This document shows positions 1-53,533 of a stretch of DNA of 64,000 nt, one piece after another. Location: positions 41,230,001 to 41,294,000 of the forward strand of contig CM022665.1 of the NCBI GenBank assembly GCA_012295275.1, in the 5' to 3' direction. The notes beneath the pieces are model-generated. The model saw only the letters and a list, made by a program, of their open reading frames with translations, did no database searches and had not been told where the DNA came from. This stretch comes from Chrysomallon squamiferum (lineage: Eukaryota; Animalia; Mollusca). The translations under genes and the position numbers were made by a program. Position 1 is the first letter of the stretch. Every line of letters starts with the position of its first letter.

Positions 1-1056
1 GTGATCATGCTTGCAGTATGTCTGCTGTGGTTGGTATCAAGTATCTCCATCTTGTTGACTGTAACTATCAGTGCAGCCCTGGTACACGAAGCCGTAAGTA
101 TTGTTTATCACATGTACACGAAATAAAAACAGAAGAAAATTCCGCATTAAAACAATATTTAAAAAAAAACCGGTACGTTTAGACCAGAGGTCCTCAATCT
201 TTGACCCGCGGGCCATGTCCGGCCCGCGAGGGATTTTGGTCCGGCTCGCCAACTGAACACTTGGACGCTAGTTATCCGGCCAGATGGCAATCCTGATCTA
301 ACAACATCATTAGATACTGTGGTTTTATTACAGTTTATTCACAATTATCATATTATTTTAACATATTATTGTATTTACATCTGTTGTCGCTATTTCTTAT
401 TTCTCCATACTGATTACTTTGCATTTTTTATTTATAATACATTTGATATTTGGGCCTTCTTCAGAACATTGCAGAGCTATCTTGCCCTCTTCTCTCCAAA
501 AGGTTGCCGATCGCTGATTTAGACGAAAATCAGAAAGAACGCAATTTTTTTAAATCATTTACTCCAATAACTTTTAAAAATTGTGTATGTTTAGACAAAA
601 AGGTAAAAAATTACAGAATCTTTAAAGATCATTTTGTTTTAAATTATTCACTTCCGTGATAACTTAACCCTTTCAGAATACAGAAAGTAAATGATCGTCT
701 TTAGTACACAGTATTATATACTGTGACTAAACTGGGGCAAACAAAATTGTAAAAACATATATTTCTTAGTGTTATCAGCAGATTAATTTTGTAGGCCGTG
801 GCGAATTCTGCATGATATAAGCCTTGTAAACTTCGTATTTTAATTTATTCAGGCACATTCCCCGTTAGATGAAATTTTCAAACTTCAGAGCTACAGCCTG
901 AGCACAGACGATGCAGTCCAGGTAAACTTTTGTTTAGCTTTGTTACTTTTTAAACTAGTATAACTTAAAATTATTGAAGTATAATTCAGATAACAAAAAA
1001 GAAAACAACAGCATCAACAAAAAGAAACGAAAAAGGAGTAGTAGTAGTAGTAGTAA

Positions 1057-1106
<50 letters not shown>

Positions 1107-3639
1107 AATAAATAAATAGCAGATTATCTGTAACTCCAGAAACATCAAATGTGTTTATTCATCTGTTCATTCATTGGTTCATTTATTTATTAAATTATTC
1201 TTTCAATCAAACATAGCTTTTCATTTTCTAGATAATTCTTTGAAAGTCTTTAGAAAATACAAATTAAAAACTCTTATTATTATTGTTGTTGCTGTTGTTA
1301 AAGAATTCATCTCATAAAACGTTTTATAACAACAACAACAATAAAATATTTTATAAACTGAACATGAATATAAGAGACAGTGGCAAATGGTAACATGCAT
1401 CATTCATCATCATTGCTTACTGTCACTGTCACTGTCATCATCATCATCATCAAACTTATTATTATTATTACGTACTATATAGAGGTAATGTATATTTAAA
1501 CAGACAGCACATTTTCATTTCAAAATTCAAGAAGACTAAAATCAACTTAAAACCGATAAAACAAAAAGAAATACATAATTCAAAATAACAAAAAAGCAGT
1601 AAATGGATGTACGCATACCTGATGTTTGTCAAATATGGACACTTCCATTATCACGGCATCTTATTACATGGAATATTTCTCAATTATTTATACAACTGAA
1701 GCTTTCCAACATTAAACTGAGCCCTTTAGTATTTCTGAAGAAATGTATATTTAATACAGCTGTGGATGGTTCAATATTGGATGGAATTTTAATCGAAAAC
1801 TTAAACACATATATTGCGAAGACTAAAAAAACGTCAGACATTTGTTGAGATGGGTCTCGTATTTTTGTTATCTTTGTTTTCTGTTTGCATCTTGTGTACA
1901 GAATCAACTGGAAAAACAAAATGTACGCATACCTGATATTAATCGAATACGGGACACTTCCATTATCAAAGCATCTTATTACACCCAGTAAATATTTATT
2001 ATTTATAATGTTACGGCTTTTCAGTATTAAACTGAACCCATTAATGTTTCCAAAGAAATGTATTTTTAATATAGTTAAGTATGATTCAGTACTGAATGGA
2101 ATTTTAATAGGAAATTCAATCATATATATTGCGTAGAGAAAAAAGATCAGACATTTGTTGAGATGGGTCTCGTATTTTTGTTATCTTTGTTTTCAGTTTG
2201 CATCTTGTGTACAGAATCAACTGGAAAAACAAAATGCGCTGCCGACTGCTTGCAATCTCCAACGTGTAGGTGGATTCTGTATGACAAGAACAATGGCCAG
2301 TGTCTTCTGAAACAATCTTTAGAATGCAGCTTGCAAACAAAGCAAGGAGTTTCTGTGTATGAAAGAATGCAGTTTGAATGGACAATTGATCAAAATGAAA
2401 GAGTTTCAAAATTCCAGTTGTCGAATCTGACCCAAGAACAAAAAACAAAATGCAAGGAGAAAACGTGCAATGTTCCAGTCGCTTTGCCCCATGCTGATGT
2501 AAAATATGATTCGCTGTTTACAAATTCTCAGGCAGAATACACATGTCACAAAAACTTTTCTATGTGCACCCCTCTCTCGGCGAAAAGTGTTTGTCTCTTG
2601 AACGGAAATTGGTCTGAACCAAACCTCGAATGTTCCCAGTCGAAGTGGACTGTTGCCAATCAGACTACGACAGGATCATTAAGCTGTGCATTTCTGGACC
2701 ACGTGCTTATTACTGGGGCAACCATAAAGGGAGAACAGGGCGATTATTTTATTTTCAGCTTGCTTGACGATGATTTCAATGCTTTACTTTCCTTGGAAAT
2801 GGATTTCAATTCAACGCATTTGTTTGTCGAAGCAAATCAGGTTAAAAAAGACCTTCAGTACGACAAGTTTCGATACAAACATGGCCAGCAGTTCGCCATT
2901 AACATTTCTATCGTACACGACAATTTTCGCATTGTCATCAATAATGTTTCCTTATTAAGTGTAACTGGCGATTTTCGTTTTCCACCTACAACGTTTTTCT
3001 TAACGAAATCGTTTATCAACGTGACCAGTGTTGAATTGAAACCACTGCTGTGATTCAGTGCCGTAGTTTGCCAAGTTCAAGCATTTATACTAAACATCTA
3101 ATGACGTTGTTAAAACAGTTCAGAAACATTTTGAAACAAATAAACTAATTGAAACAATTTGAAATTGTGCAGGCTGCAAAATAAAGATGAAGAAATAAAA
3201 ATGTTATTATTTTTGTGACTTATGTTGTTAATAATAATTAAAATCCATTTAGGTGGTATCCGTACATTATATGTATTTCAACATATAGCCAACATTTGGG
3301 TTATTTTTCTAAAACTGAAAATAAATAAATAAGTAAGTAAAAAAGTAAAAAAAATAAAATAAATAATAAAAACCTTTTTTTTTTAGACTTGAATAAATTA
3401 TTTTCGATATTTATGCAAATTTGAATAACAAAACATATTTAAAAAGACATGGGCAACTTTTTTCAAGAAGTGGCCGCATGAGATGTGGCTCATTATCAGG
3501 CGGGCCTCACTACTAATAAACGTTGTTTTCCTTGTGAAATAGGCCTGTCAACTCCACGGGCCGCAGTTTGGCCACGACTGGTTTAAACAATGGTTTTAAT
3601 CAATGGTTTTTTTTACTAGATTTCCTCAGAAGTTTAGAA

Positions 3640-3671
<32 letters not shown>

Positions 3672-3803
3672 ATAATAATAATAATAATAATAGCAATTAC
3701 AACAGCAACAATGACAATGAAAATCACAGTTAATTTCGTCTGAAAGCTACTGCATCAGAATACTGGCATCCCGATTTGTATCTGATATTCTTGATTAAAC
3801 TAG

Positions 3804-3861
<58 letters not shown>

Positions 3862-4028
3862 GATCAATCTGTTTCTTGGACAGCTGATGGGAAGATCCAT
3901 TGGCTTTACGGTTTTGGGAATGTTTGTTGTTACCAAGGAAGTTTTATTGACTGTGAGTCCTTGATTGTATTTGACTAGTTAGTTCTGTCATCTTCTTCTT
4001 CTTACTCTCTTCTTCTTTCTTTTTTTCT

Positions 4029-4441: not shown

Positions 4442-4570
4442 GACAAAAAAGAGCATAAATAAAAATATTTCTGATAATTTACGTTTTTTCAATATTATAT
4501 TTTTATTTTTCAGATTGCCGGGCTGTTTACAACATACTTCTTTCTACTTCTTCAGTTTAAAATCAGCTAA
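1..4570 (+). CDS. Gustatory receptor-like (Grl, 7tm_7 superfamily) gene, 3' part; 5' exons lie outside the window
   Basis: Exons <1..93, 853..921, 3863..3952, 4514..4570, all GT-AG and phase 0, give VIMLAVCLLWLVSSISILLTVTISAALVHEA|AHSPLDEIFKLQSYSLSTDDAVQ|INLFLGQLMGRSIGFTVLGMFVVTKEVLLT|IAGLFTTYFFLLLQFKIS*. The TYxxxxxQF TM7 motif and three C-terminal phase-0 introns are hallmarks of the GR/Grl superfamily. Confidence 0.9.
185..250. mobile_element. hAT (Charlie-like) transposon end fragment
   Basis: gtttagac target-like 8-mer followed by CAGAGGTCCTCAATCTTTGACCCGCGGGCCATGTCCGGCCCGCG, typical of hAT-Charlie termini with GGCCCGCG subterminal repeats; no partner end found. Confidence 0.55.
1038..1106. 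repeat. (AGT)n microsatellite
   Basis: direct reading. Confidence 0.95.
1607..2233 (+). repeat. ~314-bp tandem duplication of 5' flank plus signal-peptide codons of the lectin-like gene
   Basis: ATGGGTCTCGTATTTTTG...GGAAAAACAAAATG occurs at 1849 and 2163, each preceded by a homologous ~240-bp flank starting ATGTACGCATACCTGAT (1607 and 1921); the two flanks are only roughly three-quarters identical by eye. Confidence 0.9.
2163..3053 (+). CDS. Secreted protein A: signal peptide + partial PAN/Apple + Sushi/CCP + galectin-like beta-sandwich (296 aa, intronless CDS), nested in Grl intron 922..3862
   Basis: Hydrophobic N-terminus MGLVFLLSLFSVCILCTES; PAN-like CAADCLQSPTC..Y......C.L; CCP pattern C..P......YTC....C..NG.WS....C; C-terminal GQQFAINI...FRIVINN...INVTSV resembles the galectin fold but lacks canonical HxNxR/WGxExR residues. 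Domain calls are by eye. Confidence 0.8.
   Translation: MGLVFLLSLFSVCILCTESTGKTKCAADCLQSPTCRWILYDKNNGQCLLKQSLECSLQTKQGVSVYERMQFEWTIDQNERVSKFQLSNLTQEQKTKCKEKTCNVPVALPHADVKYDSLFTNSQAEYTCHKNFSMCTPLSAKSVCLLNGNWSEPNLECSQSKWTVANQTTTGSLSCAFLDHVLITGATIKGEQGDYFIFSLLDDDFNALLSLEMDFNSTHLFVEANQVKKDLQYDKFRYKHGQQFAINISIVHDNFRIVINNVSLLSVTGDFRFPPTTFFLTKSFINVTSVELKPLL
3444..3580. mobile_element. Degenerate hAT (Charlie-like) MITE
   Basis: Left AAGACATGGGCAACTTTTTT, right CGGGCCGCAGTTTGGCCACGACTG followed by gtttaaac; the termini are imperfect inverted repeats (9/13). Confidence 0.55.
4030..4118. repeat. (CT)n microsatellite
   Basis: direct reading. Confidence 0.95.
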
Positions 4571-5921: not shown

Positions 5922-6654
5922 GTCTGAATTCAATACTGGTCAAGTTAATTTTCAATTTCGTTAAGGCAAACATTGTAGATGGAACATATACGGTTGTCGT
6001 TAATAAGTAGACACTGTTCATGTAAATACTAAGAACATCGTCCTGTTTAGAAATGTTAAGTATGAACTGCTGGCCATGGTTGTACTGAATTTCAGCATAC
6101 GGCATTTTCTTAATGAAGTCATTTATGTTCATAAACAAATGCGTTGAATTCAAATTCAGACTCAGGTAAAGTAGAGAAGATCGTTCATCAAACAAGCTGA
6201 AACTAAAATAACCATTTCGTTCATTCTTTGTGGTCGTCCCATTAATAAGGATGTAACTGTCCAGTAATGCACAGCTTAATGATCCTGTCTGAATTCAATA
6301 CTGGTCAAGTTAATTTTCAATTTCGTTAAGGCAAACATTGTAGATGGAACATATACGGTTGTCGTTAATAAGTAGACACTGTTCATGTAAATACTAAGAA
6401 CATCGTCCTGTTTAGAAATGTTAAGTATGAACTGCTGGCCATGGTTGTACTGAATTTCAGCATACGGCATTTTCTTAATGAAGTCATTTATGTTCATAAA
6501 CAAATGCGTTGAATTCAAATTCAGACTCAGGTAAAGTAGAGAAGATCGTTCATCAAACAAGCTGAAACTAAAATAACCATTTCGTTCATTCTTTGTGGTC
6601 GTCCCATTAATAAGGATGTAACTGTCCAGTAATGCACAGCTTAATGATCCTGTC
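5922..6654 (-). repeat. 365-bp tandem duplication of the galectin-like-domain coding segment of gene B
   Basis: gtctgaattcaatactgg...ttaatgatcct at 5922..6286 and 6287..6651, no difference seen by eye, 3-nt junction microhomology gtc. Confidence 0.95.
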
Positions 6655-7160
6655 GTAGTCTCATTGACAAGAGTCCACTTCGACTGGGAACATTCGAGGT
6701 TTGGTTCAGACCAGTTTCCGTTCAAGAGACAAACACTTTTCGCCGAGAGAGGGGTGCAGATAGAAAAGTTTTTGTGACATGTGTATTCTGCCTGAGAATT
6801 TGTAAACAGCGAATCATATTTTACATCAGCATGGGGCAAAGCGACTGGAACATTGCACGTTTTCTCCTTGCATTTTGTTTTTTGTTCTTGGGTCAGATTC
6901 GACAACTGGAATTTTGAAACTCTTTCATTTTGATCAATTGTCCATTCAAACTGCATTCTTTCATACACAGAAACTCCTTGCTTTGTTTGCAAGCTGCATT
7001 CTAAAGATTGTTTCAGAAGACACTGGCCATTGTTCTTGTCATACACAATCCACCTACACGTTGGAGATTGCAAGCAGTCGGCAGCGCATTTTGTTTTTCC
7101 AGTTGATTCTGTACACAAGATGCAAACTGAAAACAAAGATAACAAAAATACGAGACCCAT
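6276..7160 (-). CDS. Secreted protein B: inverted paralog of protein A (PAN-Sushi-galectin-like, 294 aa)
   Basis: First 163 aa differ from A at only two residues (L/V, M/I); C-terminal domain diverged; ORF ends FRQDH* because of the out-of-frame tandem duplication, while the ancestral end FRPPSWFSAVVCQV* lies at 5884. Confidence 0.8.
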   Translation of the reverse strand: MGLVFLLSLFSVCILCTESTGKTKCAADCLQSPTCRWIVYDKNNGQCLLKQSLECSLQTKQGVSVYERMQFEWTIDQNERVSKFQLSNLTQEQKTKCKEKTCNVPVALPHADVKYDSLFTNSQAEYTCHKNFSICTPLSAKSVCLLNGNWSEPNLECSQSKWTLVNETTTGSLSCALLDSYILINGTTTKNERNGYFSFSLFDERSSLLYLSLNLNSTHLFMNINDFIKKMPYAEIQYNHGQQFILNISKQDDVLSIYMNSVYLLTTTVYVPSTMFALTKLKINLTSIEFRQDH

Positions 7161-9852: not shown

Positions 9853-11846
9853 TCATCCATCGATCTGCCGCGTTGAGGGTCTCGATATACGAGACGTGTT
9901 GACAGTTCCTAGCTGCGGGTACGACGAGGCATTCCTTGCCAGCATGAAACGTCTGACGTGTCGGTGGGGCAGGCTGCATGAAAACGTCTTGGCCAATCGG
10001 CATGTTTTTTTATGAACGTAGACAGCACCTCCGGGTATCGGGAGATCCTGTGGATCCTGGGGAAAAGAGGGGAAAAAAAAAAATAATAAAAAAAATAACA
10101 TCTTTCAATTTTATTATTGTTATCATTATTATTATTATTTTTATTTATTTATTATTATTATTTTTTTTTTTTTTTATTATTTTTTTTTTACAAAACTGGC
10201 TGTTAGAGTAGTTTTGGACGTTCGCATGTATGTATGGATGTATGCTGGGCTCCAGATCTAGGGTTTCTAGCCGGATCTACATGGATGAATCCTAGAAGCT
10301 CCGGCAAGTCATTAAATCACTAAGTTGTGGTGTATTTGTTTACATATTGGTATATATATTATTTCTGCATCACAAGATGTTTGTGTATGTGCTGATGTAT
10401 GTATGGTTAACTGATGGTTAATTACCTCTACGTCAAATCGCTTCAGCCTGGAAATGCTTTCTTTGCTCCTGCAGGTAGTTGTTTTAATTGTCTTACAAAA
10501 ATCTTTAATCCTGTTCTCCAGATGTCTCAGATTCTTGTCGCTGGTTTCCCAGTCTATGAACTCTTCATTATCGTTCTCAGAACTGGAACACACGAGTCGA
10601 CGGCTTCCTGGCAGACGATTTTTCAGGGATGACATATAAACAGCTCTTAATCTTTCGTCTAACTTCATCTTTTGGATTTCCTGCAGTTCTTGGAAGACAT
10701 TCACGATCGTCTCTTCATCCAAGACGTCTCCACTTTCATTTTCTGAGTCGTCTGGGACGGCATCGCATGGAGTTATCCGTATCCCAGATTCACTGGTTTT
10801 CGGCCGCTTTGCTAACGAACCCGAAGACTTGGACTTAAACATTTGAGGACAGCAGCTGATAGACCGTACGAACGCTTCAACATCTAGAACTTCGGCCTCC
10901 TGTACGACCCTCTGATGGCCGAGAAGTTCTCGTTCGGCTTCGACGTTGTTACGAAGTTTGCCAACACTTCTAGGAAGCTTTTGAGTCATGTTTCCGCTTA
11001 TATCATTTAATCTGGCGTTTTCTAACAGTTTTGACTCAGTCATGCGCAGTTTCGAATCCGATTTTTTCCTGTAATATAAGGAGTCTTGAACGTACGGTTC
11101 TATCATTGGCACCTTGTCCTTAAGAAATAGTTCTACAAGGTATCTGAGTTTCGGGTCTTTCGATTCCTCTGCTTTAAGCTTCTGGTTGTCTGATTTTGGT
11201 ATGAGAGTACTAGCCAGTGATAACAGCTCACCAAACAACGGTATTGACACTGATTTAGGAATTTCCATTCTTCGGATCAGTCTTCTGAAAACTCCGATCT
11301 TTAGCATCTCCATTGTTCTCATTTGCTTTCGAAGAACTAATCTCTCAAAGTTCTTGGCGTTCAGAACAAACACTTCGGTATCAGTTGTCGCAATGACTGT
11401 TCCAATATTCGTATCCAGATTCAGCACCATTTCGATATCACCTGCGAATACAGAGTATACGTGAAGTTTTTTTTTTTTTTTTTTTTTTTCTAGAATTAGC
11501 CACTAATGGCGGTCGATTTTAATTTATGCTTAAAAGCAAAATCACTGTTTGTAAGTTTCTGAGCATCATTTTATAAAAAGAAGTATAATGAAAAAAAACA
11601 ATAAACATTTTAACATGAAAGATAAAACGAATTTCGACAATGTTTTTTTGCTCCCCTTTAACAGAGATTTATGTTCACTTACCAACAATCTCATTTTTAC
11701 ACACATAGCAAAGATCGATGAATTTATTCATTACAAGCTTCTCGGCTGCCACGTACCCTTCTTTTCTCTTGACTTGAATGTAACGTGACGTCACACCATC
11801 AGACTTTGATCTTTGTATGAGCTGACGATTTGCAGGTTTTCTGAAA

Positions 11847-11896
<50 letters not shown>

Positions 11897-14800
11897 AGAA
11901 GAAGATCAATACGTAATGTGTGAGAGAGAAAACAACAACAACAAAAAAACAAAAACGGCTGTTGCAGTTAGAACATTAAAAACAATTTCCACACTTTCAT
12001 TCTAGTAATTAATCTCTTAACTATTCAGCGTTCAGAATTTAGTACTGCAATAAATCTTATCCTTGTAATAAAACACTGATTGATGATACAGGGATTGATA
12101 AAATTAAAGTACATAAATAAACGTAACAGAATTCATCACATTTATGTATGTTTTTTTTTATTTTTATTTTTATTTTATTTTTTTTTCGGTTTCACTACAC
12201 AGAATACAATTTATCTTAAGATAATAAAAACTATTCCGTTTAATGTTTATACAAAGGGATAACATTTAATTTGGAAGAAGCAATATCGATTATCATTATT
12301 ATGAAATAAATTTGCATCATCATTGTAGCCTTCATAGAAGTACTCAAATAAGTGCTGCTTACATTTGCTGAAAGCGGCTGAAAAACATCACTCTACATGT
12401 TGAATATTTTGCCTTATGTGTACGCCATTTTGAACATACAGCAATATTAATGAAATATCTGTCAGAGCTTGAAAACAAATACTCACTTAATTTTGTTTTC
12501 GTTCCATTCGCTTGGTTTCAGAAAACCTGGGTACTGGATCAAGTGTTTCGCTGGTTCAATCACTACTTTAGCGTGACCACTATAATAAAAATTATAATAG
12601 TCAGCGTTAATGGATTTTTTATGTGTATATTTCTTTGTGTATCTGTGAGCTCGCTTAGTTAATGTATGGGAATGTGTTATTTTATTTAATGTGTGTAATT
12701 ATTATTATTATTATTATCATCATCATCATCATCATCATCATGGTCATCATCGTCATCGTCATTATAAGCAGCATTAGCATCAACATTATAATTATTATTG
12801 TCGTTGTTATCATTTGTTATTATCTATAAGCTCGCTTATTTAAAGTTTGGGAATGTGCAATTTTATTTAATGTGTGTAATTATTATTATTATTGGTGGTG
12901 GTGGTGTTGTTGTTTTTGTTATTGTTTTACTTTTCGATATACGGTGCGAGGATTCGATAGAAATGTCCTTTTTAATGCACACTTTAGAACTTATTATTTT
13001 AGCGCAATACTTTTGTATTAACAAAAACACTGGCTGTTAGTAGCTAAACTAACTAACTAAATTTATAAATAAATAAACTTAATAATAATGCTAATAAATA
13101 AAAGACAAAATACACACACATAAATACATATATATATATCTATTTTAAAAATAAATAAATAAATAGAACAAAATTAAATTAAAATTAATAAATACAAATG
13201 TCTGCACATAATTACACATTACTGTGAGAATTCGGAATCATCAAAAGTCATTAGTTACTAAGCGAACGCTTAGTCTAGAACAGTACAGTGAACATTTAGA
13301 AATATTTTAATATTACATCATTACCTCAGAATAAAAACCAATCCTTTACTGAGTTCCCCTTGTTTCATGATGACTGACCCGTACTTGTGCACCTCTTTAA
13401 TCAAGCTCATCTGCAGAAGTCGCTGAAATTTTGGCGTCCAGAAATTAAATAAAGGACATTTTTCTACAAACTTTCGTCTCTCCTCGTAATATTCCTCCTG
13501 TTTTACCTGATAAAAAAAAATAGATAAATATATAAATAAATATAAAGAAGAAAGAATTAATAATAAAAACCATGAGGATGATAACGATGATAATAATAAT
13601 GATACCTAAGAACAAATGCTTTATTATTAACACCCTTAACTATCAAAAATCATTACAGTTATCAATATTTTTGATAAAATGCTGCGTGGAAATTATCCTT
13701 CTGCCTTTAAGGGGTATTCTATGAGTGTCTTCTCGTACATACAGCACGGCCTTTGATAAACGAGTACTAACTAGGGTACTGACTGGAACGAGAAATTAGG
13801 ATCATTGATCGTGAATCCAATTAATGCCTCTACTGATGGCTCTGTCAGTCTTGCCGCAGTTGTTTCACTAATGATTTTTAAAAGACAAAGAAATAACCGA
13901 TAATCTGACATACTTACCGGCACTAAGCAAACAAGAAATATTAAGTTAGAAGAATCAAACCGGTAAATGAACAGTAAACTAGCGGAAAGATTAGAACTGG
14001 ATTAAATGTTGTGTGTGTCACTATAGTGTTCACTGAGTGACTAGAAAGTTCACTTGCAGGTTTTACGTCAATTATTTAAAATGGGGAAAAAAAAAAAAGT
14101 CAGAGATATTAGACTTCACTCTACTGTCAGAAAACCGTCCAGAATAAAACAAAGAAAATGGCTCCGTTTTTATATTGGCATATTTTGTTCATGTCTAAAT
14201 ATCAATATAAAAAAAATCAATAATAATAATAACAGTTAAGAAATTTAAAATAAATGAAAGAAATTTTTTAATTTGATAAAGATGCTGTTATTTATAAAAC
14301 TGAATTATGCTGCCAAATGTAAATTTGTGACAGAAACTGAGAATATCGAAAGTATTATTTTAAGTGGTGTGTATGTGTGTGTGTTGACTGTGAATATATA
14401 GATATATCTTTAAAATGTTCTTTTTTTGTGTGATGTTCGGTTCTGTAAAAATTACTAAATTAAACAATTAGTTTATTTTATATTCTCAGATAAAACGCGA
14501 GATTTATGACGTAGTCTATGGCGTGGCAGAAGAGGATTTCGTCTGCTGCACTTTAATTTGATAGATAATAACATGCAGCAGCTATTAATTTACAGATCTC
14601 TTCAAGCATTTGTAAACAAATGTTCATAACGTAGTCTATGGTGTGGCAGAAGAGGATTTCGTCTGCTGCACTTTAATTTGATAGATAATAACATGCAGCA
14701 GCTATTAATTTACAGATCTCTTCAAGCATTTGTAAACAAATGTTCATACTTTACATTTCAGTTGTAACTTACACCCATCCCCCCAACGCGGCAGACAAAC

Positions 14801-15495
14801 AGAATCGCGCCTAATTTTAAGACATGTCAGTTGTAAACTTATTATTCTCCATTTATTTATAACACTTATTCACCCCCTCACCTTCAGAATAAATTAACGA
14901 CGGAAATAGAACAGGCTTGAATTCTCTGAAACGTGAAGACGAGCAAATGACCTCTTTTTGGGGGGAGTGGGGGGTGGGGGTGGGGGTTGATATAAACATA
15001 CATCTTAAACTTAGAAACGCAGACGTCAACACCGTCAAACTGGAAAAAAAAAAAGTAGAGTCGTGATGAAGTACCATGTTGGTTTTATTAATACAGATAA
15101 AACATTTGAAATCGCCGTGTGTCACTCGGTGAAAATCAAACGCCGACAAAAAGATATTATCTCCAGGATCATGTAACCAGATTTACTAGCAGTCTATGGC
15201 ACCTGATTCAACCGATAAATCAGTTTAATGTTTTAAGTTTCAACATTTATTAATTGATTACAAACATTTTAAACTTCTGACACAATTGTAGTCTTCAAAG
15301 CACGGTCATTTCTTCAACAGCAGTAAAAAAAAAAAAAAAATTTTTATATGTGTAGTTTCAGAGATAGGCATTTTGATATATCAGTCATGAGGAAATGGTT
15401 AGGATGTTCCTAAATGCAGTCTTTTTCCCCATTTCCACAAAATCTCGACGTAGTCTCTCTGCCAAATGTCATCCTATTTGATTTTCTTCTTCTAC

Positions 15496-15532
<37 letters not shown>

Positions 15533-18309
15533 GTTACTTAATATAGCAACCACCTAGTGAAAACTGGTGGGGCGTTGTTAAACAAATATTTATCAATTCA
15601 TTCCGCTGTCGTATATCAGTATCGTTATAAATTTGAATTATTTACTTAATGTAATGATTACGTCATGGTAGCGCCAACATACGTGATCCGTCAACACAGT
15701 AATACATTTCATAGCTGAAAAGTGCTCGAGTTAGTTGCACAATAAGAACGTGTTGACATGTGTATACATTATTATTAATATAAACACGAATTTTTTTATT
15801 TTTTATTTTTGGATTATGGCTATATGAAGAAACTGGTAAATACTTTTTTTTTTATTTTTTTTTTTTTTTTTTTTTACGTCTGCCCAATTCATTTATGTAA
15901 GGTCATAATATACGTAGTTTGCTTAACTAAGTGACATATTTGGAAGTCAAAGGAGAAATCTTTATTTAATAACTAAATCATATATATATATATATAAAAC
16001 ACACACACACACACACACACATACACTTTTAAAATATAATAATGATAATGATAATAATAATAGTAATAATAATAATAATAGTAATGATAAAAATGATGAT
16101 AATAAGTGATTGTAAAATAGTAAAAAAGAGAGAGAAAGTATACGATATATTATCAACCATATTCATTGTCTTAATAAAAAAAAATAAATAAATAAACTAA
16201 AAAGATTTGACACTGCCGGTACTCTTGACGACCTCATAAAGGACCTCGTGAATTTAAATGAGGGGGTCTAAAAAAAAATATATTTTAAATTTTTTTTTGT
16301 TGTGATTTCTTTGTAATGTATATTTTCACGTCCAAACAAGCTAACTGAATTCTATATTTACAGAATAAAGATAGCAATTAAAAGAAAACTCAGCATATTA
16401 TAATAACTATTTTACGTGTCAAATATAGGTTTTTCTAAAGGCTTATACATAAAGAGGAAACCCGCTGCTTTTACTCCGCGACTATTCTTAACCGCAAGGA
16501 ATATTTTTTTATGCTTGTTCTTTTAAACTGGAAAGTAATTATCTAGAACGGCGCGTGCGGTCTTTCGTTAAATTGAATAAATATCCTTTTCATGAACATC
16601 CATTGTCTGTTCACAGTATTTTTATAATTATTAGTCAATATTAGTCAATATAGAAAGGCAGAAGAGATCTAAAAGTGATTTTGATATTTTACATCACTCA
16701 TTTATTTATATTTATAAATGAATATACCTTCATCGATCGTTCAAACAATTCCCTAGATATTACGAGTAGATCCGAATCCTCGTCGGCTATTACCGTCGCA
16801 TTCCTTACGGAGTTTTCTCCGAGCAAGGCAACTTCCCCAAATCCATCGCCACCATCTGAAAAATACAGATACACAAAGATTAATTTTTAATAAGTTTGTT
16901 TTTTCATCTAACCGGTGAATTATCATTCTATAATAATAATAATAATAATAATAAATAATAATAATAATAATAAATAAATAAATAAATAAATAAATAAAGA
17001 TTTTGTTTTCTACAAATATTTTTCCAAACGATACTGTTTTGCGAATGCATACTTATCATTACGAATTTTAGGGATGGCAGTTTTGTAAATACGTCAACGG
17101 AGAAGACATTTATTAATATTAAATATATTAAATGTATTTATACATCACTAGCGATAATAAATTATATAACAAATATATTACTTCACTTATTAATAACTGC
17201 TCACATCTTAATATATGTTTGTCTATTACATAGCCTACAATTAATGGTTTATAAATACTACATGCTATTCTTAACAATTTACGTAACAACATGCACATAT
17301 GTAGGCCAAAACTTTTTTTTAATGATGTTTATGAAAGATAATCTTTACTCCTATTCCCTGATAAAATAACAAAAACAGTTTCTTAAAGTTTGTATTTAAT
17401 ACTTTACATACTTTTTTTTTTTTTTTTTTTTTGTTGTTGTTGTTGTAATTTATATAACATCACGTATGCGGTACGCTCACAATAAATTTATACATTAGCT
17501 ACGTGCTGTACGACCAAATAATTATTATATGTGTATTATTAAGAAAAATTCGTACTAAGTGTACACGGCATAATATTGAATATTAAGCCTCGGTACACAA
17601 ATCATTAACTATAATAGATATGTAACACAAATACCTATACCATGACAGCAACACGTATCCGCCATAGAAAGTTTGAATTTAAAAATGTTAATGCACTGGT
17701 GTTATATATGGGTGTGTCCCATGAACCACAGTGGAGTTTGACAGTAAATAACACAAAACAACGATAGGAAGGCGACTCTTTGTTTATTCACACTTTGATA
17801 ACAAAGTTCGTCTGTCTCTACTTAGTATGAACACATGAACAAAACAGACTGGATGGAACTATTTTCATTCGAACGCGACTTCATTATTAAACCGCAGTGC
17901 GTAACGCGATATCCCGGTGTGTTTTTACTACTGACGGGGTACTTAATTGTTTTCAACACGTATGGGAAAACTTGTGTTTCTAAATAAACAAAACTAATAA
18001 TGATTTTCTTCGCAATAAAAACATGGCCTGTGTGAACAAAATGGACATCAAAAGTGTGATATGCGTGAAGCTGTTTATTCCTACGCCATTTGTTATTACG
18101 TTGTTCTTTTTCTTTGTTTATTCTGTATTGATACTGTAAATATAACCTGTGTTATTGTAATAATATTGTCTTTGATATTCGTATTTTATTAAAATTAAAT
18201 CATCTTCGTTTTCCATTGTGGTATCTATCGTTCATACTTTATTACAATTATATTAGCTTTGTTTTTACAATATACGCGTGCCTAATGCCCCCCCCCAAAA
18301 TTTTTTTTA

Positions 18310-29784: not shown

Positions 29785-32700
29785 TTATGCATATTTTACA
29801 GTGTTTTCTAGAATGAGTTTCTCACACACTGTGAGCTGTCGCGCGAGTCTGTGAGCATCTGACAGTGAGTCCTTCTGTAACTCAGCCTCGTCCTCCTGCA
29901 ACAACAAATAAATAAATGATTGTTTACCTCATAAAATTCGATTCTTAACATTTTGTTACGTGTGATATAGTTTCTGTTTTATGATGAAAACTGATCGAGA
30001 AAATATGCATGCTCTTATTAGTTAGCAGAAAAAAAAAATTCTTTTAAGTAAACCATTTAACAGAAATGAAAGCACTATTTTAAATCTATTAAAATATTGA
30101 CACATTCTGAATAGCAAACTAGTAATGTGAAAATAATATTTAAAAAACTGCACCTAGTCGTCCTGAATGATTTTGACATCAGTATTCTACATCTATTACT
30201 AATACATCAGATCAAAAATTCTGAGAAATTATATTGAACTGTTTTGGTTACCTCTCTAGTAGTTGGATAAGCCTTCAGTAACAGAGAGGCTCTCATCTCC
30301 AAGAAATTCCACACTTTGAGGTCATTTTCTGGTAACACTGGTTGCCGCAGATCTTTCAGTTTCAACATGTCTTCCACTGTCATTTCTCCAGAAAACTTCT
30401 CTTTCAGAGTGTCTGAAGTAAACAAATATTTCAGTGCTTTGTTACATATTTAAATTTATATACATGAATGTTCATGGGTGAGTGCTTGTGTGTATATGTA
30501 TATATGTGTTGGTGAGTGTGAGTGTGATATATATAATAAAGCTCTTTAAAAAGACCATCATAATAAAACTTTTTTTCAGTCTGTTGGTATCATATCTCCA
30601 GAGCTGCTTTTTAACATATTAAAAAAAATTAACAACAAAAATTCTAAATCCTAACATCATACAAGATCAGATTCAGCCATTAGACCTGAAACTAATCCCT
30701 CATGTTAGCTTAAATACACACACATGTGACAGCATGGCATCTGTAAAACACTGGTATTATGTTGAGCATACATTTTAAAAAATATGTGCAGCTTACTGTC
30801 CAAAAAATATACTTTTTCCTACATGTCCACATTTATTATAACTTGCATGTTAAATTTAATTTATTTTTAATTTTTAATTTTTTTTTTTCACCTTCCTCCA
30901 TGTTGAAAACTCGAAGAAAAGCCAATAGGTCTCCATCTATTGGATTTTTACCACAGTGCAGAAAATACAGTCTGGAACTGAAATAAGAAACAAATTATTT
31001 TAGATATTGATTGTAAGAAGAGTAAGTTTAAATAGTAGTTAAATGTATCCCAGGATTTAATTATGCTACCTGTTAAATACTTAGCCAAATCATTTATTAC
31101 AATTTGTTATCTTATTATTCGTCATTACAGAATACTAAAAGTTAAGCACCAGATATCACCAGCAAATTCAGAATAATAAAGAAAAAAACACAAACAAAAT
31201 CAAGAAACACACCAAAAACAAACAAAAATAACAACTACATAAAATTGACAACAAAATAAAACTAATAAAATCTTACGGTTCAAGTCCAACTTTAGATAAT
31301 ACTTCTGACTTCAAACCAAACAAAGGATCTCCTTTGCTAATTCCTGCATTAAAAAAAAAATAATAATAATAATAAAAAAAATAAAAAAAAATAAAATTAA
31401 GGTAAAAAATACATTTAAAGAGGTTAAGTAATACACAATGGCCAAGGGCATTCATTAAAATACAGGACAGAAAAGACTATCACCCAAATAATCCATGACA
31501 CTAGTGATAAAAACATTGCCTGTACAATTACTGCCGAAGTTTTTGTTTTTCATTAGTATCATTAGAAAATAATAATAAAAACCTGCTGTTAAAAATATTT
31601 ATTAATGACTTCATTTCAAATTAGCTTTGATTAGTTTCCTAGTTTTCTTGAAAAAAAAAAATAATAATAAAATAAAAAAAATAAAGCCCTATAATTTATT
31701 GAGCTGAATTATAAAAATAATATATCGACAGAATATACATACCCAATTTCAGACACAATCTATCATTTTCATTCTCAGGATAAACAAATCCATTATGTAC
31801 AAGAAATTCAGCATTTGATCTTGCACCATAGAATATGTAAATCTGAAGAAAAAAAAAATGGAATAATAATAATAATGGTGATAATGATGATAAAAATTAT
31901 ATTGATGATGATGACAGTAATGATGATGTAAATGATAATGAAGATAATAATAGTAGTGATAATAATGATGATATTATGGCTGATTGTAGACAATTAAAAA
32001 CGATAAAGTATATGACATACACATATTTTATCAATCATATACACTGTCATAATAAACAAATAAATAACTAATAAATGAATAAATAAATAAATAATTAAAT
32101 AAATAAATAAATAAACTGTATTTTTTACACACCTGTTCATCTTTGTTAAAATCTCTCAGGCAGTAACATTCACCACAATCCTTCTCAACATTAAAATCTG
32201 CAGTGAACTGAAAATAAACATAAATAAAGAATGAAAATTTAAAAAAGAAAAGAAAAAAGAACTGTATACCAGAACTAATTTTTTTATATCTGAAAAAAAA
32301 AAACACCCCAAAAAAAAACACCCCAAAATCTCCACCAAATACCAATATTTATTTATTTATTTAATTTTTTAATTTTTAATTTTTATTTTTTTCACTGGAC
32401 AAAGAATAGATAGATATACTGTAATTAGAAAAGGCAGATTTGTTTTATAATTTAAAAAATCAAATTAATATTGAAACTGTTTAAAACAGAGACCACCACC
32501 ACTATATCTGCATCCAGAACATTCTATCAGTTTCAGTCTCTCACACACTGAGAATCTGTGTCAGACAATTCAGGTTTCTAAGCTGTGTACTCAAGTTAGG
32601 TATGTTTTAAGTGAATGAAAAATGTGTTAAGCTATTGTTTGATGGGAGAGAGACAGAGAGACTTACATGTCCATTAGTGTGATTGCACATGTCCCACAGT

Positions 32701-41831: not shown

Positions 41832-44800
41832 TTATCTCCTGCCTGATGTCCCTGTGATGCGGACTGTGGCCAGTCCAGTGGAAGTTGATGATGTAGTTGC
41901 TTGGCTCCATGAACTTCTTGGCGCTTTGTAGTTATGACCAGAAGGCACAGGCTGTCGTGGATCTCCCATGGGTCCAGGTGGAGGAGGGACCTGGTTTGGA
42001 GGGTACTGACCAGGAGGTGCCGGTGGAGGGGGATACTGCTGGTAGGGTGGAAATGACTGAGGAGGAGGCTGGTAACCAGGCTGCGCTGGTGGAGGTGGAT
42101 TGGGATAAATGGGTAGTGGGGCAGAATAGTTGGGAGGCACCTGATATGATCCGTTGTATGGCATGTTGGAGGGAACTGAACTGACTGGTGGGTAGTTCGG
42201 CTGAGGATAAGAAACTGGGGGCGGTTGGACATATCCCGTTTGCTGGTAACCAGGAGGGTATCCAGGGTTAGCTGTTGGTGGGGGCTGAGTCATTGGGTAC
42301 TGTGGGTACTGATTAGGGGGAGGAGCAACGGGTGGTGGAGGGCCACCTGTCAGAAGAGTCTGAATGTTTTGGGAACCTTCCTGAGACATGAACGATGATG
42401 CATACATTCCTGTTGAAACGTAAGGATTAAACATTGTGTACTGTTCACTGTTTCCTCCTTCTGATATTGGAGGTTGAGATGAAGGAGGCATGGCAACAGG
42501 AGGAATGCTGGCAGTACTGGCTGGAGGTGGAGCTACTTCTGCCTCTTTTTCAGAAATAGGCTCTACACGTCTTTTCGATTTGCCCTGATAGGTTCAATCT
42601 TGTGCTGCTTGGCCTCCACTTTCACTGGTTTCTTTGCATCGTTTGCATGACGGCTATGTTGAGGTTCAACTTTGGGAATCTGCAGACAAATAATATTAAT
42701 TATTTATTCACTTCTGTTTGGAGTAAAACTGCATTGAAACTTTCTGTCTGTAATAAAACTATTTTTATCAGTATGAAGTCATACCAATAATCTGTTAAAC
42801 TTTCATTCGTCAGAAATATAATAATAATGTATTTCCATATATAGAAATAACAATAATTTCTAGCAATGGAATTAATAATAAATAACTGACATTCAGCCCA
42901 TAATATTATTTATATTTGTTTAAAACATCATCAGGCTTCAGTTAATGTAAATCAACTTCTGCACTGACAAACTAAAGATATTTTCTGTAAATATTTTATT
43001 TAAATTGCAATTAACAGGGAAATTTTATTTTTATTGTCAGTTATACATTTTTTGTTTGTTAATAAGAAGTATTGTTTTACAAAAAAAAAAAAAAAAAAAA
43101 AACATTCTCTTCTTTCTGTATAAACATAAAATGTAAGTAAAAAAGATAATAAAAGATGTTTTCTGACATTGATTACAATCTTAATTGATTACAAAATCTA
43201 ATTATACATGCTGATATACATGCTTGCACACTTATGACATTGTGTATATACATATGTTTCTGTATAAAATATAATGTATCTGTGTGTGTGTGTGTGTGTT
43301 TGCATGAGTATATGTATATACATGCCTACCAGTAATGATAAAGAATTTTAAAAATATATTTAAAAAACTAAATACTACTAATAATAAAAAATTGTAGATT
43401 CCAGTCACAAGACTCTCATAGAGAAAGATGCCACACACAAAAAAGAAACTAAAGATGGATATATCTGCCTGCACACTAGCTACAAAAGTCTAGGAAGAAA
43501 TAGAAGAGGACAGCTATAATTTGCATTCACTAGAGAGCTTCTATCAGACACAGAAACCAAAGTAAAGTAAGAAAAGGCAAAGACTAGAACTACATGAAAC
43601 ATGTCATTTTTGTAAATATGTATGTATATATATATGTATATGTATAAAAGGAAAACTAGTTTAGACAAAACTAAGTATAAGTGGTTAGTTGCAGAAAACC
43701 CAAATGCCTAAACACATTCTTCAGTCCTGTGACAAGAAATCTGGCTGAACCTAGTAGACCTAAACCAGAAGCCTTTAGGATCAATGACATCCCATAAAGA
43801 GACAGCAGATTTCATAAGGAGAACAGGACTGGAAGTCTGAGCTTAGCTTTGGGAATGCAGAAGAAGAAGAAGCTGCAGAAAAATTAAAATGTTGACTGGA
43901 TACAAGCGTAAGGAAATGCATGCAGCTGCAGAAGGCTGATACTTGCCACAGTTTTTCTATTTGCTTCTAACTCCTTGTCTTGTGGAATCTCCTTTAACAG
44001 TGCCATAAAAAAATAACGTGTAATATTTCTGCTAAATGTGGATGATACATTTATTAATAGTTACCTGTTAACAAATAGATATTTCTTTCTACAGATTTTT
44101 CTAAATGAAAATTTTAAACTAATGTCTTAAAATTATAAAAACAGTCTGATGATCTCTTCAGAACCAAAACGTCCCACACTTGCAACAGAGTATAATTGGA
44201 AGCTTCACAAATAAATTTGGAATATAAATCTGATGGATGATACCTGTATAAATTAAATTAGTATTAACTATGTTTACTTCTTACCTTTCTTACTTGTTTT
44301 TTCGGAGTTGCAGACCCTGATCTTGATACAGGAGTTCTTGATGCACCACCTTCTTTGGGTGGAGGACTAGGGGGAGGGGAGTCTTCAATTGTCTTTCCTT
44401 TATTGGAATACAGATCTAAAACCTGGTGGCAAATGTCTGCAAGAAGACAGTCATTGGATTTCATTAAATGTAATAATTAATGATAATTGATCATACAACA
44501 CTTTCAAAAATCTGTTGTTAAGAATATAATTTAATAGACTCAGAAGAATGCTATTTTTTCCCCTTGTTTCATGCCTTTTTATACATGGAAATAACAAGTA
44601 AGAAAACACCGATTTTCTTTGTCAAATGTTTTGTTTTATAATTTAAATTTATCTGTGTGAAACTGAAATGTCCACGAGTCTTTCATTAATAAACAAATTC
44701 ATCTTAAATGGATATTTACAGTTTTTAATGGCTACCGTGCAGAATGTTTTTTATTCCAAAATATTTATACAATAGCACACAACACTGTTTTAATAATTTA

Positions 44801-47800
44801 AAAAAAGAAGATAAAGGAAAAAGAAATAATATATTGAAAATTATATAAACAAAAAACACAAAATAAAGCAGAAATCCAAGGCATGAGGTACCTTCCATCA
44901 ATTCCATGGACATATCTTCAATAAAACATTCCCACCATTTTTTCCGGCTACCAGGAATATTTGGTTTGCCGTCCCAGTCTTGAATGTCAAACTTAGAGAG
45001 TCGGGAAGCCAGGTACATGAGAGATACAGCTATAATTTCTGGTTCCCACTGTAAACAGAGTGTTGTACACATACTGCAATGTAAATATATATATATATAA
45101 TTAGTTTATATTATAGTGTGTGTACAAATTCTAAAAAAATATTTAACAGTACATTGCTAATAATTAATCAGCATGCTTAATGAAAGGCAGCAATACATTT
45201 GGTACATTAATGTTTATCAAACCTCAACATGTGATTATGTAATAATGATACAGCAAAAAAAAAAAAAAAAAAGTTATCATCATCTCTATGGAATGATTTT
45301 ACCATGTAGCAGGAAAGTGTCTTTTTTATGCACATTCCTACTGACAGCATGTATTACACCTCTGAAATGCCAGGCTGAGTAATAATGTAAGTATACTAAT
45401 AGGTGCATTGAATAGGACTGATCCTTGGACGTAAACATTAGTGCATATTTCTTAATAATAAATAATAATAAACTGAAGAAATTTAATTACTTAAAATGTT
45501 TTACACTTCTGTAACTGATGTTGGAGAAATCCAACAGTATAATAAAATCACAAAGTAATATCAGGGAAATTCAACTACTGACTATTCCTTAATAATAAAC
45601 TAAAGAAATTTAATCATTCCTGGGAAATTTAACTGAATAAATATTATAATTACAAACCTGTCATTAACAAATGTCCAAGCCATCTGAACCATCTTCTGTA
45701 TCTGTTCTTTGTCTCCTAGTAAAGTAAATATTTAGTGATGTGTGAGTCAAAAGCCACTGCGGTGTTTCAGTTATTTGAATTAAGCCGAATATTATGCATA
45801 CATACATTCTGGTGACTGAATGTGCAAGATAACATTTAATTTTTTTTAAATATACAACTATATACATATATATATATATATAAATATATATACACACATA
45901 TAAACACACATACACAATCTAGGTTGAAACAAAAAATTCACAACATTTTTTAGTTGTTATTCAATGGCAACATTTAGATTTTTGTACAGAGATTTGTTCA
46001 ACAACATATATCATGTCATTTCACCTTTCAGAAAATGTATACATGTCATATATTTCAGCCATGTTTGAAACAAAATTATATGCTCAAATGCCTGTCACCT
46101 GTTGAAAAATGCTACTAACTTTTGTTCCTAACCAGTATAATCCACGTAAGCTCATTTATAGTCATTAACTGTATCTTTCTATGAACATTTAAAATTTTCC
46201 AGAAAAAAATAAAATGAGGGACAAATACTATTGTCTTTTTAAAATGCTGTTCTTGTACATAATAAACTAAATCAACCATAATTATCTGAAGAAAAAAAAA
46301 AGATTTTTAATTTAAATACTTCAGTAATTATAGGAAATTGTGAAGGTTCTGTTTTAACTGAATAATACTCGAAAATTCCAATTTAATAGAAATCAAAATC
46401 TCACCTTTGAGAAATTTTGCATACTTGAGAAGAATGCCATATGGGTGTTCAACTTGTAGGTCAAATTTAATAGTCTGTAGCAGAACTCTTTCCAGTGTCA
46501 TAACTTCTTCCTAGAACACAGAACCATTCAAAATAAATTTACAGAAAGCAATTAGTTAACAAATGAAAGAATTATATTTTAGTTTTAAATTAAAGTATAA
46601 AATGTAAATAAATAAATAAAATATCATATGTTTTCTCCCTAAAATACAAATTTGTTCTTAAATAAAATTAATCATACTACATTTTTGTGATGAAATTTTT
46701 TCCACGATTCTGAATCATTTTATAAGACATTTCTAAATTTACTGATTGCCTAGCTGTGCTCAGTGTCTTGTGCAAAAATGTAGGACTTTTTAAAAAAGTA
46801 TAACACAATTTTATTTAAAGGTATTTATTCATACAAGTCACTTATGAAACAATGGTAAAACTTTAAAAATGGAAAATAAATTTGCAATAGATGTAAAATT
46901 CTGCTAAATATAAATTTATGATTTCACTAACTAACTAAATACAGAATGTCATTTAAACAAGGATTTTACAAATTTCCAGAAAAGTGGGATGAACAAAACA
47001 CAAAAATTATAAGACACTTCAAGGGTTACACCACAAGCGAGCTATACACATTAAGATGTCAAATATTTATTTTGAAATAAAATACTGTGTTCTGCAGTGC
47101 AAACCTTTGGATCACTCCCAAATGTTGAAAACTGCTGAGGGGTCAGTAAACTCTGAGATATTTTGATGATGTCTTTGCATTTCTTTGGTGTTTCTTCAAC
47201 TTTTCCAGCAAGGAAAAGACAACAGGCAGCAGTCACCTTAACAACATTATAAAACAAACATATTTAAATTGTAAAAAATCCTAATTATATATTCACATCA
47301 TGTAACTTATTTTAAATAATATTTAATTTTTTTTTTTTTTAAATTTGAATTATGCATTTATATCATTTAACTTAATTTCAAACTGTTAGAAAAGGAAAAC
47401 AAATATTTTAAAGAAAATTATGCAGGAATACAGTTAATATATGGAAACATACAATTAAAGCTTCAAATAAAATGATTTGAGCCAAGCTTTTTGTTGTAAA
47501 TGCATAACAAATATGTTTGTGTTAGCTTCACTACACATTTTACAATATGATGTAATTTTTGAAAAAATAAATAAATTGTATGGCTTCTTTTAAAGTTTTA
47601 AGAAAATTTTCATATGAATACAATTAACACTTTCACTTTCACAAAAATTTAAATATACAATTAAAAAAGTGTAACTTACATATCTTGGAAATTCTTTGAA
47701 GGAATGGAACATGTAAAATCTATGGAAATACACAACACCAGTTGCATTAGTATCAAAGCGTCTGAATATATGGTTAAGGAAAATATCAATTTTAATACTT

Positions 47801-52306: not shown

Positions 52307-52730
52307 TATTTACTATTGATACATACATTAAAATGATATCGTGTGATAATAAGTTATTTTAAGAACATTCCTATCTGAACATTTTACATGTGAATAGAAT
52401 AAAAAAAAAAAAAAGTGTGAAACCGATAATAAATAACTGCATTTTCTAATCATTTTTTTTAATAATTATTTAGCATCGGTTAACATGAAATTTAATATAT
52501 TTCGTTCATTTATAAAACTGTACTTAAATACTGTTTTCAGTATTATTCGGGAGCTTTTTAATGCATTTGCACGATGTGTATGAAAAATGAGTAAATAATA
52601 AACAACTCTCAGCATTGTTACTTTCTGGTCAGAGGCTGTCAAATGCGACTGCTCCAATTAATTAAAAAGTGACTGTAAAAATAAGCATTAAATAACAGTG
52701 TAATGTGCTTTTTTACCTGTGTCCACAGAT

Positions 52731-53046
52731 TTATTTATTTATATATATATATATATATTTTTTTTTTAGTCAAATTCAGAATTCACCTGGAAAAAGAAAA
52801 GAAGAAAAAAAAAGAAGAAGCTATTAGTGCAATCCCTTAGATGTATATGCAGTACTAAAACTTTATACGATGGCTGCAAAAACACCCACATTATTTATAT
52901 ATATATATATATGTATGTATATATATATTTTTTTTTAGTCGAATTCAGAATTGACCTGGAAAAAGAAAAGAAGAAGCTATTAGTGCAATCCCTTAGATGT
53001 ATATGCAGTACTAAAACTTTATACGATGGCTGCAAAAACACCCACA
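52731..53046. repeat. ~156-bp tandem duplication
   Basis: AAGAAGAAGCTATTAGTGCAATCCC...AAAAACACCCACA twice. Confidence 0.92.
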
Positions 53047-53292: not shown

Positions 53293-53533
53293 TATATTCA
53301 AAGCATTAATAATAACAAAAACAACAACTGTTGTACCAGTAGTAATGGTAATATTACTATTATGTATAATAATAAAAGTTTAAAACACACGCTCATCAGT
53401 TTCTGTTATTGATAGATATTCAAAGCATTAATAACAAAAAAAACAACTGTTGTACCCAGTAGTAATGGTAATACTACTATTATGTATAATAATAAAAGTT
53501 TAAAACACGCTCATCAGTTTCTGTTATTGATAG
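53293..53533. repeat. ~121-bp tandem duplication
   Basis: ATATTCAAAGCATTAATAA...CTGTTATTGATAG twice with small indels. Confidence 0.92.

Follow-up and report, generated by a model that had tools for sequence, protein, structure and literature searches.

The window, a 64,000-nt stretch of Chrysomallon squamiferum contig CM022665.1, is A+T-rich (G+C about 0.30), carries many microsatellites and contains 0 N. Its first 8 kb hold, on the + strand, the 3′ part of a gustatory-receptor-like (Grl) gene and, between two of its exons, an open reading frame (ORF A) for a predicted secreted protein with PAN, Sushi and galectin-like domains; an inverted paralogue (ORF B) follows on the − strand. Four Grl exons can be placed. 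The 3′ end of the long exon (1..93, cut by the window start) is open, encodes the predicted transmembrane helix 6 (TM6; maximum 19-residue hydropathy 2.73) and is followed by a phase-0 donor, GTAAGT, at 94; it can be aligned loosely to the stretch where the long upstream exon of relatives ends. A 23-codon exon (853..921), predicted to form intracellular loop 3, has the length and the ‘AH’ start seen in relatives, and a 30-codon exon (3863..3952) would lie before and run into TM7; both are bounded by AG and GT in phase 0. The last coding exon (4514..4570), identified by motif match and profile rank, closes with TYFFLLLQF, the TM7 motif, and a stop. Joined, the four exons give 103 codons in phase 0 whose sole stop is the terminal one. 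The motif fits the Grl consensus (T/S)Yhhhhh(Q/K/E)(F/L/M) at all positions, and the three phase-0 intron positions are the same as in related loci; this motif and conserved 3′ introns are the published hallmarks of Grls (PMC7746228, PMC5850775). According to PMC6150509, non-arthropod Grls have no established chemosensory function. An earlier sequence-only reading of this stretch had joined 853–921 to 3863–3952 in frame, and this predicted junction stands, being stop-free and agreeing with the gene structure of relatives; exons 1–93 and 4514–4570, ORF B and the conversion tract described below are additions to it.

Relatives came from a metagenome scan that gave 418 stretches with coding sequence related to the 30-codon exon, of which the best 80 were kept (L001–L080, 45 distinct peptides); their G+C of 0.38–0.51 indicates animals distant from that of the window. 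The best AG..GT piece among those of 24–36 codons is 30 codons long in 80/80 loci; as the search required AG and GT and carried a small penalty favouring 30, only the length and the match are informative here. A 23-codon phase-0 exon starting with ‘AH’ lies upstream of it in 39 loci (28 distinct). An unseeded count recovers these 39, and on the reverse strand any start pair reaches at most 9; among the 41 loci lacking the ‘AH’ exon, 33 have less than 1500 nt of upstream sequence and eight have more. Of the 80 loci, 36 also yielded a terminal exon carrying the TY motif. The long upstream exon of locus L079 matches 7tm_7 (75–281, E 4.7e-5) under the Pfam cut-off of 26.6 bits, and two shorter long-exon pieces from relatives did not match this profile. 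Exon structure is near constant across L001–L080, and the host-animal contigs contain sizeable unannotated Grl families.

Exons of the window were ranked with position-specific scoring matrices (PSSMs) built from other animals' exons only, against AG-led open pieces of both window strands. The exon at 853 ranks 1/110 among AG..GT pieces and 1/1666 when only AG is required, and those at 3863 and 4514 rank 1/1173 and 1/2513, respectively; this profile ranking gave no second Grl-like exon inside 922–3862. A hidden Markov model (HMM) from relatives finds the 30-codon exon with E 2.9e-14 within the window. With a plain HMM built from the 23-codon exon, 853–921 was not recovered in the window, so the support for this exon is its position, length, phase and PSSM rank rather than a significant E-value. 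In Pfam, the 30-codon exon matches 7tm_7 positions 322–350 at 15.3 bits (E 0.013), under the cut-off, and exons 1–93, 853–921 and the last exon, searched singly, gave 0 matches. With the 30-aa exon as query, the ESM Atlas returned unrelated bacterial leads only (scores below 0.9), and sequence searches of the PDB returned nothing useful.

The predicted host intron between these exons (922..3862, GT..AG) is 2941 nt long. Since in relatives the 23-codon ‘AH’ exon stands directly before the 30-codon exon, 922–3862 corresponds to their homologous intron. In 28 distinct relatives this intron measures 159–2957 nt (median 645); that of the window is about four times the median, and about 830 nt without the duplicated unit of about 2.1 kb described below, its length thus being explained by the gene inside. 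The sequence-only reading had asked whether relatives carry the insert in the same intron. No A-like sequence was found in the 80 related loci (tblastn, E ≤ 1) and no ORF of more than 138 aa in the 39 homologous introns, so the nesting appears to be lineage-specific, which, given the distance of these animals, would show only that it is not ancestral. Short dispersed repeats occur in two Grl introns of the window (185–520 and 3440–3590), with many contigs and loose ends on them; they resemble pieces of non-autonomous DNA transposons.

ORF A (2163..3053, +) is a single uninterrupted exon of 296 aa on the host strand, as the sequence-only reading had it; across 300 shuffled versions of the intron, no ORF exceeds 139 aa. 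A signal peptide is predicted from the hydropathy of its N-terminus (13-residue mean 2.95), followed by PAN (residues 22–68), Sushi (102–157) and galectin-like (about 170–296) domains, with eight N-glycosylation sequons and 14 Cys. This architecture, also proposed earlier, is upheld with a reservation: Sushi (33.3 bits) and PAN_1 (25.3 bits) exceed their Pfam cut-offs (20.7 and 21.4 bits), but Gal-bind_lectin (17.6 bits, cut-off 22.1) falls short, as does 7tm_7 for the host. The lectin-like domain itself matches Gal-bind_lectin with a Pfam E of 9e-4 and a galectin-10 sequence with E 0.016. The top ESM Atlas match of A (0.96, a feature score and not an alignment) is a galectin/PAN cluster of 83 members whose commonest phylum is Mollusca; it shares the domain set of A (Gal-bind_lectin in 93% of members, PAN_1 in 77%, Sushi in 14%) and has a similar length (312 versus 296 aa). 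The 14% with Sushi imply that the domain architecture of A is not unique. Protein searches with A gave no relative among 545 near-length and 4688 longer candidates, a metagenome scan none among 329 pattern matches, and an exact-sequence look-up found neither A nor B. The structure models are of low confidence (mean pLDDT 36 and 47), and fold searches with them gave no match above noise. In the open-access literature searched, we found no account of a Grl intron housing another gene, nor of a PAN–Sushi–galectin protein.

Just 5′ of the ATG, the pattern ATATATTGCG ... TCAGACATTTGTTGAG is common to three copies (2121–2162, 1806–1849 and 7202–7161) and might represent a TATA element and an initiator with a very short 5′ untranslated region. 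We also weighed a coding exon further upstream, joined in phase 1 to 2197 or 2215, but discarded it, since the candidate pieces, which end at 1597 or 1607, are rich in A and code for no signal peptide.

The likeness of the third domain to galectins, and to GRIFIN and GRP, which are galectin-like but non-binding, is one of weak profile and sequence similarity, and several features set it apart from them. The canonical galectin residues are His44, Asn46, Arg48, Asn61, Trp68, Glu71 and Arg73 (PMC3396283), a set that neither A nor B possesses. There is no Trp after residue 162 in either protein, and hence no equivalent of Trp68; in the galectin-10 alignment, the single HxNxR string of A falls after, not before, the Trp position, and B has no such string. 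Galectins typically lack a classical signal peptide, whereas A has the hydrophobic N-terminus, sequons, PAN and Sushi described above. Without a Trp68 equivalent and a properly placed His–Asn–Arg, β-galactoside binding is doubtful; A may bind a glycan or a protein through another surface.

ORF B (6276..7160, −), of 294 aa, is convergent with the Grl 3′ end and lies 1.7 kb past the Grl stop. It is 76% identical to A overall but 48% in the lectin-like domain, the N-terminal 162 residues differing at only two positions, and its Pfam matches are the same as those of A (PAN_1 26.1, Sushi 30.5 bits). No third full copy was found in the window by tblastn. The homology covers a unit of approximately 1144..3260 (+) around A and its mirror at about 7884–5690, the two bracketing the last two Grl exons; the non-coding flanks align at 70–85% on both sides of the ORFs, the part at 1144–1348 being weak and of low complexity. 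As the homology extends over non-coding flanks, the duplication was most likely an inverted one at the DNA level. The shared flanks reach far upstream of the ATG, ruling out A as a retrocopy of B; this exclusion extends to A-from-B only and does not reach an earlier origin of the unit by retroposition.

Divergence between the copies is unevenly distributed. A tract at 1921..2692 (+, versus 7402–6631 in B), spanning the promoter region, signal peptide, PAN and Sushi, differs at 12 of 772 nt, compared with 79 of 322 in the lectin-like part (Fisher P 7e-33) and 31 of 203 in the 3′ flank; sliding identity is 0.96–1.0 and then 0.66–0.71. Such sharply bounded near-identity within older divergence makes 1921–2692 a likely gene-conversion tract. 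In the lectin-like part dS is about 0.49 and dN/dS 0.8 (bootstrap 95% interval 0.47–1.36). Neutral simulation of 114 codons at this dS left both frames stop-free in 0.5% of 5000 trials, and the MAFFT alignment of A and B contains three gaps, of 3, 3 and 6 nt. The improbability of openness under neutrality, together with triplet gaps, argues that both copies have been kept as coding genes.

Upstream of the tract lies a stump (1607..1922, +), the first copy in a 314-nt tandem duplication of 243 nt of upstream sequence and the first 73 coding nt of A. It is 82% identical to 1921–2236 and joined to this next copy through a 3-nt overlap; its upstream part is 81–82% identical to A and B, and its coding part matches at 72 of 73 positions. 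The upstream region of B is single and collinear with the old upstream region of A, and the stump agrees with B at five of six differences, so a patch copied from B to A is the simplest account, the direction being unproven. The upstream region of A carries five changes of its own in 242 nt, versus one in B. The match of 72/73 in the coding part suggests more than one exchange.

The sole coding difference of the stump is TCT (region of 1883) where A and B have TCA (2196), so that the cryptic acceptor AG of 2197 is missing there; the direction is that expected from selection against mis-splicing, but with one site this is anecdotal. B has a duplication of its own, an exact 365-nt tandem repeat of its 3′ coding part (5922..6654, −), which alters only its last few residues. 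Small local tandem duplications of 120–165 nt are common in the window (14509–14748, 53294–53534 and 52729–53046). A hairpin RNA formed by A and B would need read-through of at least about 1.9 kb beyond 4707/4718, where the poly(A) signals of the Grl probably lie, and is unsupported.

The sequence-only reading had argued from the AATAAA signals downstream of A that its poly(A) site competes with completion of the host transcript. The signals are present, yet by themselves they are not above chance: the + strand of the window has 330 AATAAA, the hexamer occurs in 35% of 150-nt windows, and the last Grl intron contains eight. As it is background in A+T-rich DNA and is found in other Grl introns too, the competition argument is weak. 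Only the pair at 3180 and 3194 (3180..3199, +) stands out, being kept in the flank of B and followed by T/GT-rich sequence, and this pair, unlike the hexamer alone, is likely to be the poly(A) signal of A. A better case for interference would come from three AG sites, acceptor-like but cryptic, in signal-peptide-coding sequence (1902, 2197 and 2215; 1902..2215, +). A matrix derived from 105 sites of other animals, of higher G+C, gives them scores of 10.0, 8.0 and 9.3 and gives the three acceptors of the Grl 8.8, −1.7 and 7.1, and a splice from the Grl frame into each of them leads to a stop after 29–37 codons, before TM7.

Contigs of five runs (X1, X2, X3, X6 and X7), drawn from three studies, were compared with the assembly, joints being checked in X1, X2, X6 and X7 with a bridging bar of 31 letters, and contig cover in X1, X2, X6 and X3. 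The stump joint is present in 4/4 runs, with a short side of 90 letters in one and 27–30 in three. The junction of the 365-nt repeat of B is likewise present in 4/4 runs (three studies), its short side of 27–30 letters lying below the bar. No joint that skips the nested gene is listed in X1, X2, X3 and X6. Contig depth, which is not equal to copy number, rises in X1, X2 and X6 in steps of about 1:2:3 from the unique to the shared to the thrice-present parts, the pattern predicted by the window; the steps are less clear in X3, and X7 is irregular. In X7 the depth of the repeat unit of B (5922–6316) is 759 against 46 in the flank, compared with about two- to threefold in X2 and X6, reflecting either library bias or a higher copy number. 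Positions 3753–4020 are uncovered by contigs of X1, X2, X3 and X6, and the repeats at 992–1116, 1266–1470 and 3313–3372, with one more, are skipped.

We think it probable that A is a predicted secreted PAN–Sushi–galectin-like ORF that came to lie between Grl exons through an old inverted duplication, and that the two genes are likely to be transcribed independently. A unit of about 2.1 kb comprising promoter, ORF and 3′ flank would have been duplicated in inverted orientation, so that one copy sits within the Grl intron and the other beyond the 3′ end of the Grl; either may be the older. A recent conversion, probably from B to A, would then have overwritten the promoter, signal peptide, PAN and Sushi of A and left the 314-nt stump, and the lectin-like domains would have kept diverging, giving two proteins with a common N-terminal module and different candidate binding domains. 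A would be made from its own promoter, its transcript ending near 3200, and the Grl transcript would splice out all of A, an arrangement presumably tolerated because A is intronless and the genes are probably active in different cells. Interference, if any, would be a side effect and not a control device. The inverted paralogue and the conversion tract thus offer a simpler origin for the nesting than was available before.

Several observations weigh against this account. The dN/dS interval of 0.47–1.36 does not separate relaxed from diversifying selection, and a simple pairwise DNA aligner places more gaps, partly non-triplet and compensating, in the lectin-like part. The near-perfect coding part of the stump beside 81–82% upstream is unexplained by one event, and an older tandem duplication with conversion in either direction also fits. 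The true acceptor, at 3863, comes after a (TTA)n stretch and has a lower score than the cryptic sites of A, which would allow real interference. The window holds only the last 103 Grl codons, and the host may be broken upstream, its 5′ two thirds lying outside. Finally, the microsatellites that flank A are not bridged by any contig, contigs breaking at 992–1116 and after 3632, so the nesting rests on the assembly, backed by the exon order and the position of B.

These points bear unequally on the other explanations. One partner may be dead or silent, leaving no conflict, either because the Grl is decaying (broken upstream or by the insertion) or because A is no longer transcribed in place. The unseen 5′ part, the weak acceptor context at 3863 and the excess of changes upstream of A would all suit this; yet no visible Grl exon is interrupted, their splice sites are canonical, their lengths are conserved, the TM7 motif is matched perfectly, the sole exonic Grl variant listed in run X6 (at 912) is synonymous, and A is open and selected, so we regard it as unlikely. 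Quite unlikely, in our view, is a functional switch, in which either the Grl pre-mRNA is spliced from 921 to a cryptic acceptor in A and ends at the poly(A) site of A, giving a receptor that lacks TM7, or one gene's transcription shuts off that of the other, so that the two products exclude each other. The cryptic acceptors outscore the true one and lead to early stops, the AATAAA pair is conserved, and precedents exist for forced exonization and cryptic polyadenylation at nested genes (PMC3192792) and for interference between tandem fly chemoreceptor genes (PMC8346220). However, the scoring matrix comes from animals of higher G+C (0.38–0.51 versus about 0.30), T-rich signal-peptide codons mimic acceptors anyway, and these sites recur in B, outside the intron; the nesting is missing in all related loci examined, and a near-identical B outside the gene would make a dedicated switch hard to maintain. 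The fuller version, a nested off-switch in which, wherever the promoter of A is opened, the poly(A) site of A and an acceptor stronger than the microsatellite-flanked one of the receptor end the Grl transcript, to yield a TM7-less Grl (one lacking the pore helix) together with a secreted protein whose binding domain is diversified on a conversion-maintained scaffold, seems to us very unlikely.

An assembly artefact, in which a mis-join placed A between microsatellites or the flanking exons belong to different Grl paralogues, would draw on the contig breaks at the repeats. It is hard to reconcile with a window that contains no N and has each exon type exactly once and in the right order, with paralogue B next door, and with local junctions and depth steps that fit the window in runs of three studies; we hold it to be highly improbable. 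The least credible proposal, to which we give next to no weight, is that A serves as an alternative last Grl exon producing a membrane-anchored receptor–lectin fusion. A does lie on the same strand and offers 19 phase-0 AG sites, the best of which (2532, score 5.8) reads through 173 codons, but the strong acceptors towards its 5′ end are phase 1 and shift the frame, and A starts from an ATG and signal peptide of its own, which the free-standing B possesses in identical form. Moreover, the known topology of gustatory receptors puts such a fusion point inside the cell, where disulfide-rich domains are out of place.

The probable arrangement, an independently transcribed gene nested by inverted duplication, belongs to a documented class. 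Same-strand nesting had been called unusual; it is a minority in Drosophila melanogaster, but at 28.7% of nested genes it is scarcely rare, and 72.5% of those same-strand genes are single-exon (PMC3814207). In mammals the orientations are broadly similar in number, same-strand being close to half (PMC11694760). By homology of gene structure on the given assembly, A lies wholly within one host intron, and the fly and mammal figures make the locus a further case of this class. Same-strand nested genes are mostly intronless and often duplicates, and fly nested pairs are less correlated in expression than neighbours, diverging rather than being coupled (PMC3814207, PMC5174743). Coupled or mutually exclusive expression of receptor and secreted protein, as suggested by the sequence-only reading, would be no more than a possibility at the present locus. 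A resembles them in being intronless, wholly intronic and a duplicate, and differs in that its host is a Grl and that it is one arm of an inverted pair exchanging sequence with a copy outside. The host has the TM7 motif, the three 3′ phase-0 introns and the 23- and 30-codon exons of animal Grl genes (PMC7746228); what differs is the intron, about four times the median and holding a gene. With loci where nested genes truncate their hosts (PMC3192792), it has in common a promoter, cryptic acceptors and poly(A) signals within a host intron; transcripts were seen there, whereas here truncation is possible from sequence alone. For the present locus, then, truncation stays a possible by-product. Imprinted cases of host truncation by a nested gene, reportedly of the H13/Mcts2 type, are cited in PMC11694760.

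Elsewhere in the window, a multi-exon gene at 10312–16886 (−), probably extending further up, has a weak cyclic-nucleotide-binding match in its 372-aa last exon, and cNMP_binding matches at 16701–16886 (E 5.5e-8). A cyclin T/K-like gene at 41832–45072 (−), perhaps cyclin K, has a CycT2-like_C match at 44728–45072 (E 8.7e-5) and a proline-rich ORF at 41832–42491. At 30210–30449 (−), a Rubis-subs-bind match at the cut-off (E 4e-4) marks a possible exon of a SET-domain methyltransferase gene.

Were a regulated TM7-less receptor or exclusive expression true, the locus would offer a new Grl off-switch and a first hint of a secreted partner, but the evidence does not point there. For annotation, short Grl exons with a nested gene between them would be a source of error in gene prediction, and Grls outside the arthropods are poorly catalogued. 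The A/B pair would provide a clean small example, in an uncharacterized secreted family, of an N-terminal module kept alike by conversion while the candidate binding domain diverges.

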